Below are positions 2,417 through 51,573 of a DNA stretch of 64,000 nt, in pieces. The translations under genes were made by a program, and so were the position numbers. The notes beneath the pieces are model-generated. The model ran no database searches. It was not told where the DNA came from and was given only the letters and a program-made list of their open reading frames with translations. The stretch is from Escherichia phage VEc20. Every line of letters begins with the position of its first letter. Within the stretch, counting starts at the first letter, position 1. Location: the sequence record MN022785.1; one strand, given 5' to 3'.

Positions 2417-2448
2417 AATTATATCACATCCTTGTGGTAAAGTAAACT
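2417..2448 (-). promoter_or_regulatory. T4 early-type promoter (-35 GTTTAC, 17-18 nt, TGaTATAAT) driving rIIA.1/rIIA
   Basis: revcomp reads GTTTAC-tttaccacaaggatgtg-ATATAAT between gene 39 stop and rIIA.1 start. Confidence 0.6.
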
Positions 2449-4267
2449 ACTGGCTCATCCATTCTTTACGAAGGTCAGCATTATCTCCCATGAGCATTTC
2501 AAAAAGCTCTTTCCAGTTCTCAGGAAGTTTAACAACATCATATACTGGATTTTGAATCATCTCACGATATTCAGATTTTTCCAAAGAGCCAAGTCCTTTA
2601 ATATAACGGATGCTATGTTTAGGTAGAGCATCTTTAGCACTCTCATATTCAGCGACTGTATAAAACCATTCTTGTTTTTTACCAATCTGTGCGATGATTA
2701 CAGGAGTTTTGACAAAGCGAATTCGTCCTTGCTCAAACAGTTCTGGCCAATTACTAAAAAATCCAAGCAGAGAAGGATAAATGCTTCCTAGGCCATCATG
2801 GTCAGCATCAGTCATAATAGCGATATTATGATAATTCAAGTTTTCAGCTTTTTCACCGAGAACTAATCCAGTGATTGCGCAAATATCAAATAGTTCTTTG
2901 TTTTTAAGCATATCTGCATAAGACATACCCCAACTGTTGAGAACTTTACCGCGCAATGGATAACCACCGTGAAGTTCTTTATCACGAACATCAATAAGAT
3001 ATCCGATAGCCGAATCACCCTCAGTCAAGAAAAGAGTAGTGTCAGCATCTTTACCACAAAGATTCGCTTTGATATGTTTATGAACCTTAGCTTTAGATGC
3101 CTTTTTAGCTGCTTTAGTTTCTGCTGCTTTTTCTGCCGCCAATTTACGAGCCAAAGCAGCTTCAATAATTGGCATCAGAATTGCTTCATTATTCAAAATA
3201 GCACGTGAAATCTTTTTAGCATCAAGCTGAATATGACTACGGATTTCACCAAATGGAGAAGTCAAACGCTCTTTAGTTTGAGAATCAAATCGCATGTTTT
3301 TCATATCACGAACAAACATAACGATTGTCAAACATTCTTTAACGCGTGCTTTAGTCACATCAATTTTGAACTTACGTTTGATTTGTGGAATAAGGTCTTC
3401 ACAAATATCATCCATAACGCAGTCAATATGATGGCCACCATTCTTAGTATGAATGTTATTGACGTATGTTAATTGACGAAAACCATCCGGTGAACGACCA
3501 ACCGCAATAGAGCAATTTTCTTGTTCTTGAACAATAGCATGCTCATCATATTGGCGTGCATATTTCTTAAAATTGCCCTGAACCTTTTTACCATTAAAGG
3601 TAAATTGAATATCAGGATAAACTACTGCAAGTGTCTGGAGACGATCTAGTGTAATGTCAAGATAAACTTGGGACAGCTCATTAGTTTCAAATGACATAAA
3701 ATCAGGAATGAAAGTAACACGAGTTCCTTTCCATTTTCCAGGAATAGTTTCCCATGATTTATTTTCCATGCCATTTGAACAACGAACTACAATATTATTT
3801 TGACCATCACCAGTTTCACCGACAAACATCACAGAAAAAATGTTTGTCAAACTAGAACCAACACCATTCATACCGCCAGTGACGCGTTCTTTATCATCAC
3901 CAAAGTTACCACCTGCTTTTGGAATAGTCCATGCAGCAACAGGACCAGGAATTTCTTCACCGGTAGGTGTTTTAACCATCGCTTGTGGAATACCGCGACC
4001 GTTATCTTCAACTGTTACTTGATTGTTTTTAATAGTAACATTAATTTTATTTGCGAATTTAAACTTAGTACGAATACCTTCATCTACTGAGTTATCGATA
4101 ATTTCATCAATAAGCTTAACAAGACCAGGTACATACTGAACACTTTCCCATTTACCAAACAGAAAGCGCTCATGCATTTCATTAGCGGAAGAGCCAATGT
4201 ACATGCCGCTACGCTTTTTGATATGTTCAATATCGCTCAGAATTTTAATTTCATTCTTAATCATCAC
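2447..4267 (-). CDS. 39: DNA topoisomerase II large subunit, uninterrupted (gp39 + gp60 equivalent in one ORF)
   Basis: 606-aa ORF; GHKL ATPase motifs (VEDNGRGIP, GGNFGDDKERVTGGMNGVGSS) plus TOPRIM-like C-terminal part; no internal gap or stop. Confidence 0.9.
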   Translation of the reverse strand: MMIKNEIKILSDIEHIKKRSGMYIGSSANEMHERFLFGKWESVQYVPGLVKLIDEIIDNSVDEGIRTKFKFANKINVTIKNNQVTVEDNGRGIPQAMVKTPTGEEIPGPVAAWTIPKAGGNFGDDKERVTGGMNGVGSSLTNIFSVMFVGETGDGQNNIVVRCSNGMENKSWETIPGKWKGTRVTFIPDFMSFETNELSQVYLDITLDRLQTLAVVYPDIQFTFNGKKVQGNFKKYARQYDEHAIVQEQENCSIAVGRSPDGFRQLTYVNNIHTKNGGHHIDCVMDDICEDLIPQIKRKFKIDVTKARVKECLTIVMFVRDMKNMRFDSQTKERLTSPFGEIRSHIQLDAKKISRAILNNEAILMPIIEAALARKLAAEKAAETKAAKKASKAKVHKHIKANLCGKDADTTLFLTEGDSAIGYLIDVRDKELHGGYPLRGKVLNSWGMSYADMLKNKELFDICAITGLVLGEKAENLNYHNIAIMTDADHDGLGSIYPSLLGFFSNWPELFEQGRIRFVKTPVIIAQIGKKQEWFYTVAEYESAKDALPKHSIRYIKGLGSLEKSEYREMIQNPVYDVVKLPENWKELFEMLMGDNADLRKEWMSQ

Positions 4268-5152: not shown

Positions 5153-5572
5153 TTATTCCTTAAAGTGTGCTTTCAACATCTGATACAAGGACCATGCTTG
5201 TTCATTATTTTCAATAGTAACTTTCATGATCGGGAATTCTGTGAAATCTTCTATTTGTTCTTGCTCTTCCTGCTCTTGTTCTTCAGCTGCCTGATATGGA
5301 TTTTCCACTTCATTAAAGAACTCAGCTTCGCTCGTTGAAAGCCAAATAAAATCTTCATCCAAAATATCTTTACCGGAGGATAACGCCAATCTTCCAGTAG
5401 ATGTCACAATTTTAGTAGGACGACCAAGATGGTCAATATCTATAACTTTAAAAGGTTCCATACCTAAACGCCGCGCATAGATTCCGTTATCAGTATGGTC
5501 TTTAATAAAATTTTCTTGAGCTTGTTTATTTTTAAATTGATACCATTTATTAACTTCAAATTTAATAGCCAT
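5153..5572 (-). CDS. hypothetical acidic protein (goF position in T4 order)
   Basis: 139-aa ORF with [10 protein letters not shown] acidic tract; name positional only. Confidence 0.5.
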
Positions 5573-5787
5573 TAATAAATTTCCTTCCAGTAAGTTGTAC
5601 CATCTTCAGTGATTTCACGAAATACACCGTAAATTGGTTGTTTATCCCCAACCTTTTCATACACATAAACCGAAGTCAAGTGAGTAAACTTAGCAGTGTG
5701 TTCCTTTTGAACTACTACCAAATCTGGATCGAATAACACATCTTCAAATTCGTCATTAGTGCAGTTCTGAACAATTTTACGTTTCAT
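5572..5787 (-). CDS. hypothetical protein (cef position in T4 order)
   Basis: 71-aa ORF; positional. Confidence 0.5.
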
Positions 5788-5866
5788 TACAATTTCCTCG
5801 TTAATTGAACATTGGAGCGATGCGTTTCAGAAGAGTAGCAGCACCTTTGGCAAATTTTCCATTTTA

Positions 5867-5909
5867 TTCTCCAAATTATTTTCTATATCAGTAGTTGATA
5901 TTGATATAG
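5867..5909. repeat. 13-bp perfect inverted repeat (atcagtagttgat / atcaactactgat) with 17-nt loop
   Basis: read directly; sits in 170-bp non-coding gap between the two flanking ORFs. Confidence 0.7.
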
Positions 5910-5959
5910 TACCATAATCAACTACTGATGTATATAGTTTTATGAAAAAATTTTAAACT

Positions 5960-6451
5960 TTATGCATAGCGAGCTTTGCTATAGTGTTTAATCCAACTTT
6001 CAGGAATGACTTTGTATGTTCCTAAAAATACCGCGTTGTATAACTTAACGCCATCTTCTACCCATTGATCAGTAATGTATGCACACATAGCGCGAGTACG
6101 CCGAGGAAGTGGTTGTCCACCTTCGGTAAATTCAAACTCATAAGGAGCAATGAACTTGATAGCTTGACCAAGTTTCCACTTAAAGTCTACACCTACATGC
6201 GAAGTATCAATCGTTTCAATTCCTTTAGCAGGAACAGCTTTCAAAAACGCAGGCTCAAGAAATTTCCATCGAACATAACCAAACTGGGGCTTAGACATTC
6301 CATCTTTAGCAATGATACGTACTTTTACTTCAGAATCTTCATCTTTAACACCGTGTTTAAGCTGAATGCTTACAACTTCGACCAATTTTCCTGCTGCTTT
6401 AGAACGGGATTTATCAGATACACGAGCAATTTCGCCGATATTAATATTCAT
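5960..6451 (-). CDS. MotB-like protein (positional)
   Basis: 163-aa ORF at motB position; C-terminal domain shared with ORF 6525..7028. Confidence 0.55.
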   Translation of the reverse strand: MNINIGEIARVSDKSRSKAAGKLVEVVSIQLKHGVKDEDSEVKVRIIAKDGMSKPQFGYVRWKFLEPAFLKAVPAKGIETIDTSHVGVDFKWKLGQAIKFIAPYEFEFTEGGQPLPRRTRAMCAYITDQWVEDGVKLYNAVFLGTYKVIPESWIKHYSKARYA

Positions 6452-6524
6452 AATTATCTCTCACTTGTTAAAAAGGTTTTATACTCCACAGGACCATTAT
6501 ACTCTGATCCCAAGAGTTTGTAAA

Positions 6525-7028
6525 CTAGCTTACACGAACATTAATCACTGCGCTGCGAGGAACGACAGAATACTCTCCAGCATGAACTACATTAAGAAGT
6601 TCAACGCCATCTTCAATCCACTGGTCAGTTACCCAACCGCCGACCGGATTCGCGAATGGACGACGAATGTAAACTGCCTTACACAACAAATCAGTCGGGT
6701 CTTCAATTTTTTCAACTGGTGCCACATACATAGAAACTAAATCCATATCAATATGGGATTTTTCCTGTTCTTCTTTTTCAATTTCTGTCAATAGACTAAA
6801 ATCTTTTTCATAAATAAGAAGCGATGACACCATTCCATAATAGTTTCTAATTTCAATATACATCATGCCGATAAGAATTCCGCTATTAACACTAATAACA
6901 GTAAAAGGATATCCGCCAGTTAAAGCAAGAAGTTCACAAAACTTATTATGAGCTGTATTAGACAGTACCGGAAAATTCTTAATTTCATCAAATTTTTTCA
7001 ATTGATAAACAGCATTATTTTTAATCAT
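6525..7028 (-). CDS. hypothetical protein, paralog of ORF 5960..6451 (shared C-terminal domain)
   Basis: 167 aa; C-terminus DQWIEDGVELLNVVHAGEYSVVP vs DQWVEDGVKLYNAVFLGTYKVIP. Confidence 0.55.
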   Translation of the reverse strand: MIKNNAVYQLKKFDEIKNFPVLSNTAHNKFCELLALTGGYPFTVISVNSGILIGMMYIEIRNYYGMVSSLLIYEKDFSLLTEIEKEEQEKSHIDMDLVSMYVAPVEKIEDPTDLLCKAVYIRRPFANPVGGWVTDQWIEDGVELLNVVHAGEYSVVPRSAVINVRVS

Positions 7029-51542: not shown

Positions 51543-51573
51543 AATAGTATCACACTACTACCCTGCTGTAAAC
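51543..51573 (-). promoter_or_regulatory. T4 early-type promoter upstream of AAA ATPase
   Basis: GTTTAC, 18 nt, TGATACTAT. Confidence 0.45.

Follow-up and report, generated by a model that had tools for sequence, protein, structure and literature searches.

The gap between motB and cef is one of the few sizeable non-coding stretches in a T4-type genome, and it raises the question of what it contains and what the long perfect hairpin inside it does. The window analysed here, a stretch of 64,000 nucleotides, belongs to a T4-like phage (Tequatrovirus). Over positions 5400-6500 it shows 100% identity to Yersinia phage PYps32T and Escherichia phage BW-1, and this segment has matches in 583 phage records. 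The non-coding gap of 170 bp that an earlier, sequence-only reading had reported after the gene in motB position was found again and measures 172 bp; the GenBank T4 records NC_000866 and AF158101 list no feature within it. The locus is composed as follows.

6496..6524, minus strand: early promoter upstream of motB, TTTACA-17-TATAAT (promoter scan, 11/12 matches)
6451..5960, minus strand: motB
5788-5959, flanked by minus-strand genes: motB-cef gap, 172 bp
5787..5572, minus strand: cef, 71 aa (phrog_1354, E = 1.6e-38); no intact gene lies between it and the promoter embedded in the gap
5572..5153, minus strand: goF

A promoter is annotated in phage DalCa at the position equivalent to the motB promoter (6524..6496). 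As a side observation, MotB (5960-6451) and the product of the next upstream gene (6525-7028), both encoded on the minus strand, have the C-terminal motif …TDQW(I/V)EDGV(K/E)L(Y/L)N… in common and, judging from it, look like paralogues. In several other genera, too, the gene upstream of cef carries the same C-terminus as MotB.

The hairpin is indeed a perfect inverted repeat, with arms of 13 bp (ATCAGTAGTTGAT and ATCAACTACTGAT) and a loop of 17 nt. Its coordinates had been given as 5867-5909 and have to be moved by 20 nt, as the element occupies 5887-5929 (arms 5887-5899 and 5917-5929). It is the longest perfect inverted repeat in the 64-kb window (loops of 3-30 nt searched); by itself, its length is only moderately unusual, since 15 of 200 randomisations of the window under a first-order Markov model reach that length at some place. 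Fold prediction, which the sequence-only reading had proposed as a check, gave -20.2 kcal/mol for the 47-nt sense RNA (z = -5.7), a value that none of 200 shuffles equalled, and -18.8 kcal/mol for the antisense. The predicted fold consists of the 13 bp and an inner 5-bp mini-helix in the loop, with a 2x2 internal loop between them; about 18 bp are stacked in total. Four of the 13 stem pairs are G/C, the tail after the stem is AUAUAGAAAAUAAU, there is no T-run on either strand, and a terminator scan gave no site at the hairpin in either direction. The features of an intrinsic terminator, namely a G/C-rich stem, a short loop and a U-tract directly after it, are thus missing. The absence of a clean U-tract had been recognised from the letters alone, as had its consequence that a simple terminator is less likely; the hairpin is not a classical intrinsic terminator, and efficient intrinsic termination is unlikely. 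An Rfam search at a permissive E-value over the hairpin returned a best match of 21.2 bits against a gathering threshold of 65. The possibility that the arm belongs to a repeat family was dropped after a search of the window at up to two mismatches yielded the two arms and otherwise chance-level matches only.

Read on the gene (minus) strand, the same stretch consists of an A/T-rich upstream tract, then TATACA, 17 nt and the extended -10 TGgTACTAT. The -10-like tatagtacca that had been pointed out in the loop is present (the + strand loop ATTGATATAGTACCATA contains TATAGTACCA), but this was a reading of the non-coding strand: the motif is the reverse complement of the promoter's extended -10, and the full promoter on the minus strand had been missed. 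A BLAST search with the gap also matched other places in the same genomes, among them the T4 motA region (Z48569), whose depositors annotated -35 and -10 signals beneath the match. Our region and this annotated T4 motA early promoter are 77% identical over 77 nt with both signals in register. TATACA lies under GTTTACA, TGGTACTAT under TGGTACTAT and the 3' arm ATCAACTACTGAT under an identical, equally spaced 13-mer in the leader of motA; upstream, the two promoters share the A/T-rich tract. The motA promoter differs in that no hairpin forms, its spacer ACCAAAGCATACTGTGG lacking complementarity to the leader, and in its consensus -35, GTTTACA.

A promoter matrix built from 20 other early promoters of the window (TTTAC[AT]-N17-TA...) was used to score both strands, 127,854 positions altogether. 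The site reached 30.9 bits, the best score of any position outside the training set and higher than the median leave-one-out score of the 20 training promoters, while unrelated sequence tops out near 8 bits. From the motA alignment together with this score, we conclude that the gap contains an early-type sigma-70 promoter directed towards cef. The consensus scan had passed it over because it matches at 8/12 positions and the cut-off of the tool is 9/12. Its weaker parts are the -35 (TATACA, contributing 4.0 bits compared with a training mean of 9.1) and the upstream tract (6.6 bits compared with 10.5). The imperfect -35 would count against the reading preferred below; Dhakavirus QL01 also uses TATACA upstream of cef. 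An antisense promoter on the + strand was considered as well and rejected (8.2 bits vs at least 17.6 for real promoters), and neither a MotA-box middle promoter nor a late promoter (TATAAATA) could be found in the sequence by eye.

The following parts can be distinguished, with TACTAT taken as -12 to -7 for numbering.

5935..5957, minus strand: A/T-rich upstream tract AAGTTTAAAATTTTTTCATAAAAC, counterpart of the UP-like region in T4 early promoters
5929..5934, minus strand: -35 hexamer TATACA, 5/6 to the T4-type TTTACW, aligned with GTTTACA at positions 101-107 of Z48569
5917..5929, minus strand: 5' arm ATCAGTAGTTGAT, the promoter spacer, predicted at -30 to -18
5900..5916, minus strand: loop TATGGTACTATATCAAT, holding the extended -10 (TGg 5914..5912, TACTAT 5911..5906)
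5887..5899, minus strand: 3' arm ATCAACTACTGAT, the predicted first 13 transcribed bases; the motA leader has this 13-mer equally far from its -10
5827..5872, minus strand: SD GGAG (5872..5869), ATG (5862..5860) and an 11-codon ORF ending at 5827

The upstream tract aligns with the tract aaaaattttttcacaaaac of the annotated T4 motA early promoter, and a tract of the form atttttca(c/t)aaag precedes many early promoters in the window. Promoter and hairpin are closely interlocked. The last base of the -35 doubles as the first base of the 5' arm, which is completed by 12 nt of spacer unrelated to that of the paralogous motA promoter, and TACTAT aligns with the annotated motA -10 (positions 125-130 of Z48569). 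The 5' arm thus covers -30 to -18, the loop -17 to -1 and the 3' arm +1 to +13. Transcription probably starts at about 5899, 7 nt after the -10, as predicted from the spacing. With such a start, the promoter's own RNA would carry the 3' arm only and could not fold the hairpin, which would be left to read-through RNA from motB.

This composition recalls the promoter-early stem-loops (PeSLs) that Krisch and colleagues described in RB49/phi1 and later in PST/T4 and nt-1/KVP40 (PMC2839356; PMC4122927). A PeSL consists of an AT-rich tract, a sigma-70-like promoter, a variably placed stem-loop that often overlaps the -10, an SD and an ATG; PeSLs cluster in variable regions beside indels (PMC2839356; PMC4122927), and the promoter consensus of the PST/T4 set is TTTACW-N17-TAYWAT (Comeau et al. 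2014, PMC4122927). They have been proposed to act as terminators or attenuators of upstream transcription (PMC2839356; PMC4122927) and as recombination sites (Arbiol et al. 2010, PMC2839356). In the only reporter test in the literature, a G/C-rich stem-loop of RB49 lowered the expression of a downstream lacZ as a strong terminator would (PMC2839356). All these parts recur in the same order between motB and cef: the A/T-rich tract AAGTTTAAAATTTTTTCATAAAAC at 5957..5935, the promoter TATACA-N17-TACTAT with TGn (-10 and spacing match the consensus, the -35 does so at 5/6 positions), the 13-bp perfect stem enclosing the -10, and an SD with a start codon, whose ORF is an 11-codon remnant here and has 89 aa in RB6. 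The element likewise belongs to a repeated family, with BLAST matches at two to five places per genome and 23 related promoters in the window, and lies in a variable region beside a gene presence/absence difference. There are differences, too. The -35 deviates from the PeSL consensus as TATACA, and the stem is long (13 bp), A/T-rich and perfect with the whole -10 in a 17-nt loop, whereas RB49 stems pair a G-run with a C-run and the PST set has short AGNA/TCNT stems "just upstream of the promoter". Terminator activity was demonstrated for a single stem only, that of RB49.

Our preferred reading, to which we assign a probability of roughly 0.6, is that the hairpin constitutes the stem-loop module of a PeSL-type cassette between motB and cef and marks the boundary of the motB transcript. 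Of its two parts, the identity of the cassette as a PeSL is very probable from the layout, whereas the mechanism by which read-through RNA from motB would be bounded falls a little short of even odds. The hairpin would accordingly be one module of a composite promoter/stem-loop cassette and not a free-standing RNA element, and, within a known class, an ordinary member that had gone unannotated; the published PST/T4 PeSL list may or may not include the site. RNA from the embedded promoter would start at about 5899 with the 3' arm only and would lack the hairpin. In contrast, read-through RNA from the motB promoter, about 600 nt upstream, would carry both arms and could fold into a helix of about -20 kcal/mol with 13 bp and the inner 5 bp. 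This helix most likely would form the 3' boundary of the motB transcript, be it as a pause or attenuation signal, as a barrier to 3'-exonucleases or as a processing site, and the embedded promoter would restart transcription for cef-goF. RNase III sites have about 20 bp of near-continuous double-stranded RNA; with 13 bp and 5 bp across a 2x2 internal loop, the helix could approach such a substrate. With its perfect arms, the site is also prone to events at the DNA level, the loop inversion found in one phage (see below) being an example. On this reading, one of the few non-coding gaps in a T4-type genome would be accounted for by a second promoter for cef-goF, the motB transcript boundary and the scar of a lost gene.

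The scar lies 3' of the hairpin, where GGAGAATAAAATG at 5872..5860 provides SD and start codon. The 11-codon ORF that follows is the out-of-frame remnant of an 89-aa gene (phrog_3720, E = 2.6e-46), which has been deleted here and in T4 between AAAATTT direct repeats; an intact copy is present in RB6 (RB6_009), Shfl2, phiD1 and about half the relatives listed (the counterpart of the entry at 5827-5872 is positions 703-972 of comparison sequence L022). The presence/absence difference amounts to about 208 bp. The main stem ends 14 nt before GGAG. Only a weak outer helix of seven pairs, which spans two 10-nt internal loops and joins UUUUUCA with UGGAGAA in an extended fold, touches the SD; it is missing from a shorter-span fold.

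Conservation, likewise suggested beforehand as a check, is high: the hairpin is base-for-base identical in T4 (NC_000866 6582-6624), and the 71-nt region is kept at 95% identity or more in 491 of 515 phage records. For more distant relatives, the regions upstream of cef homologues were compared in IMG/VR and in named phages, covering eleven other lineages. Most of the T4-like lineages compared again have a stem that lies beside or overlaps the -10 upstream of cef; its sequence is unrelated, and compensatory changes occur. They comprise Mosig-, Dhaka-, Kanagawa-, Marfa-, Karam-, Moon- and Gelderlandvirus, Yersinia phage MHG19 and several uncultured IMG/VR lineages. At least eight unrelated stem sequences occur (e.g., GGTGTAGG, TGGTAGGAGC, AGGGCTAT and TTGATGAGACCAT), with arms located between -30 and +7, and a clean compensatory change distinguishes Karamvirus (AGGGCTAT/ATAGCCCT) from Gelderlandvirus (AGGGTTAT/ATAACCCT). 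In an alignment anchored on the promoter and not on the structure, 73% of the cells pair in the proposed register vs 34-45% with the partner slid, double-change cells number 15 vs 1-8 in the slid registers, and the observed score was reached by none of 500 shuffles. The position of the stem in the other genera follows the -10 box and not the end of the upstream gene. A pattern scan of IMG/VR with free arms returned five contigs, all with identical arms and hence uninformative on covariation within the genus. By these data, selection on structure has preserved the stem-loop of such cassettes in at least ten T4-like lineages. Two observations count against the preferred reading: the T4-type stem is a perfect palindrome, by itself uninformative on RNA vs DNA or on the strand, and its register (centre -9, 17-nt loop) differs from that of most other genera (centre -11.5).

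Some of the sequences depart from this pattern. Gaprivervirus (EAWsc9, L033 ~295-320) has the hairpin ATAGGG-TTTTTG-CCCTAT upstream of cef without a recognisable -10 or -35, which looks like a degraded ("half") cassette, to judge from its sequence. In lineage L020 (1416-1460; IMG/VR UViG_2706795719, with a cef that is 42% identical), a canonical intrinsic terminator, AAAAGAGGT-ttacaag-ACCTCTTTT followed by a T-run, stands upstream of cef; the next promoter takes its -35 from the loop of this terminator and its spacer from the T-tract. The promoter-coupled intrinsic terminators are laid out in this way: -35 and spacer come from the stem-loop and the T-tract, respectively, the -10 follows, and the start site lies about 10 bp downstream of the 3' end (Fletcher et al., bioRxiv 2026, 10.64898/2026.08.19.745784). 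The motB-cef site resembles these elements in that the hairpin of one unit and the promoter of the next share DNA, but its stem brackets the -10 and no T-tract is present. The cef promoter of Dhakavirus QL01 (L025 ~280-330, …ACAGGGTAGTAGTGTGATACTATTACCCTATCAA…) is nearly identical over about 35 nt to the window promoter at 51572, a different locus, which appears consistent with promoter/stem-loop cassettes moving between loci. Finally, phage Pinarejo (PP925831, L023 401-470, orthologous to 5887-5929) has the 17-nt loop exactly inverted between intact 13-bp arms. Since TACTATA within this loop is nearly palindromic, TATACA-N17-TATAGT can still be read on the gene strand after the inversion. The inverted arrangement occurs in no more than two of about 507 records, Pinarejo being the one identified; it may represent a real template-switch inversion or an assembly artefact.

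Hairpins at early promoters are common in the window: 9 of its 23 early promoters fold at -15 kcal/mol or lower, compared with 3% of background segments (binomial p = 1e-8). In these nine, the spacer pairs with the leader and the -10 lies in or beside the loop. At eight of the 23, the downstream SD pairs with bases upstream of +1, often with a TTCCTC-type stretch right after the -35, and such SD pairing is also seen at the cef promoters of Karam-, Moon- and Gelderlandvirus. Both sets are given by the first base of the -35.

63084, 60471, 55447, 51572, 50130, 18805, 7595, 6524, 5934, minus strand: nine hairpin-embedded early promoters
63084, 60471, 56259, 50130, 47155, 12795, 7595, 6524, minus strand: eight SD-pairing early promoters

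At the eight SD-pairing promoters, the ribosome site would be hidden only in read-through RNA. The difference between sense and antisense fold energies is -3.4 kcal/mol at the promoters compared with -1.2 in the background (p = 0.014), a bias that indicates G.U pairs and hence sense RNA. One natural variant is relevant here. Phage SholemSchwarzbard (PP925840, L041) has a single A-to-G change in the 5' arm (ATCGGTAGTTGAT), the only arm variant found; it keeps a G.U pair in the sense RNA (-19.5 kcal/mol) and produces a C.A mismatch in the antisense (-12.9 kcal/mol), one data point. We tentatively suggest, as a generalisation that is rather doubtful at present, that T4-type early promoters lie systematically inside RNA hairpins formed by pairing of spacer and leader, often with a TTCCTC-type anti-SD in the spacer opposite the downstream SD. 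If this were true, the same mRNA sequence would act differently depending on the origin of transcription, and neighbouring early genes would be insulated by a general switch: promoter-proximal transcripts would be open, translatable and sensitive to the RegB nuclease, and read-through transcripts folded and blocked, protected or ended. The motB-cef hairpin would then be one SD-independent instance of such an origin-dependent switch. In such cassettes transcription would start inside or beside the 3' arm, which leaves folding to read-through RNA and makes the old question of the insulation of the densely packed T4 early genes directly testable.

The hairpin might also be a neutral by-product at the DNA level, either a quasi-palindrome perfected by template switching or a recombination site, and matter only as a hotspot of inversion, deletion or cassette shuffling with no function in RNA. 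The leader in common with the motA promoter next to a differing spacer is the pattern expected from templated correction of one arm. The inverted loop of Pinarejo, the adjoining gene that is present or absent between relatives and the recombination at cassettes proposed in the PeSL papers (PMC2839356) point in the same direction. Nevertheless, we regard this explanation as unlikely. In more than ten lineages, this promoter carries stems that are unrelated in sequence and show compensatory changes; the genome is strongly enriched in hairpins built into its promoters; RNA is indicated by the G.U pairs and by the energy bias towards the sense strand; and the neighbouring deletion used the AAAATTT microhomology and not the hairpin. 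The opposite possibility, favoured by the sequence-only reading, is a free-standing RNA processing or stability element, e.g., a site for RNase III or a barrier that shields motB mRNA from 3'-exonucleases, to which the likeness to a promoter would be irrelevant. Such an element would fit the stable helix (-20.2 kcal/mol, about 18 bp stacked as 13 plus 5), the missing U-tract and the location directly after the motB stop codon. It appears quite improbable given a promoter match far above background and in register with an annotated T4 promoter, a stem that follows the -10 and not the upstream gene in other genera, and no Rfam match near threshold (21 bits vs 65). A role in RNA processing or stability in read-through transcripts is possible as part of the cassette reading.

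Hairpins that enclose promoters are known from T4 with a different output. In genes e, soc, 49 and I-TevI, late promoters are nested in hairpins that only longer transcripts fold, hiding the SD (PMC3014915). As in these, the promoter at the motB-cef site lies within the DNA of the 5' strand of the hairpin and its own transcripts would, by the predicted spacing, lack the 5' arm; unlike in these, the promoter is early-type, and the main stem excludes the SD, while their 3' arm hides SD or AUG. The corresponding explanation, a translational insulator that hides the ribosome-binding site in read-through RNA and leaves translation of the downstream ORF to transcripts of its own promoter, gains from this late-promoter precedent, from the SD pairing at 8 of the 23 window early promoters and at three cef promoters of other genera, and from the UUUUUCA/UGGAGAA pairing of the extended fold. 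It is nonetheless very improbable at this site, where neither SD nor AUG is sequestered by the 3' arm: the main stem stops 14 nt short of GGAG, the outer helix with its seven weak pairs and two 10-nt internal loops is gone in the shorter-span fold, and the ORF behind the SD is an 11-codon remnant. The perfect dyad symmetry and the intergenic location after motB would suit an operator to which a dimeric protein binds, or a classical intrinsic terminator on one strand or the other. We consider both hardly credible, as the window holds no further arm copy beyond chance at up to two mismatches, and the stem with 4 of its 13 pairs G/C, the loop of 17 nt, the absence of T-runs from both strands and an empty terminator scan do not describe a terminator. 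The protein-binding site that had been offered as an option from the letters alone is likewise disfavoured, since genera, as well as promoters within one genome, differ wholly in stem sequence and yet keep the structure.

A full-text literature search retrieved no relevant T4 transcript-end map and no mention of the hairpin sequence itself. Elsewhere in the window, the large topoisomerase subunit (2447-4267, minus strand) is encoded by one ORF of 606 aa, compared with the split genes 39 and 60 in T4.
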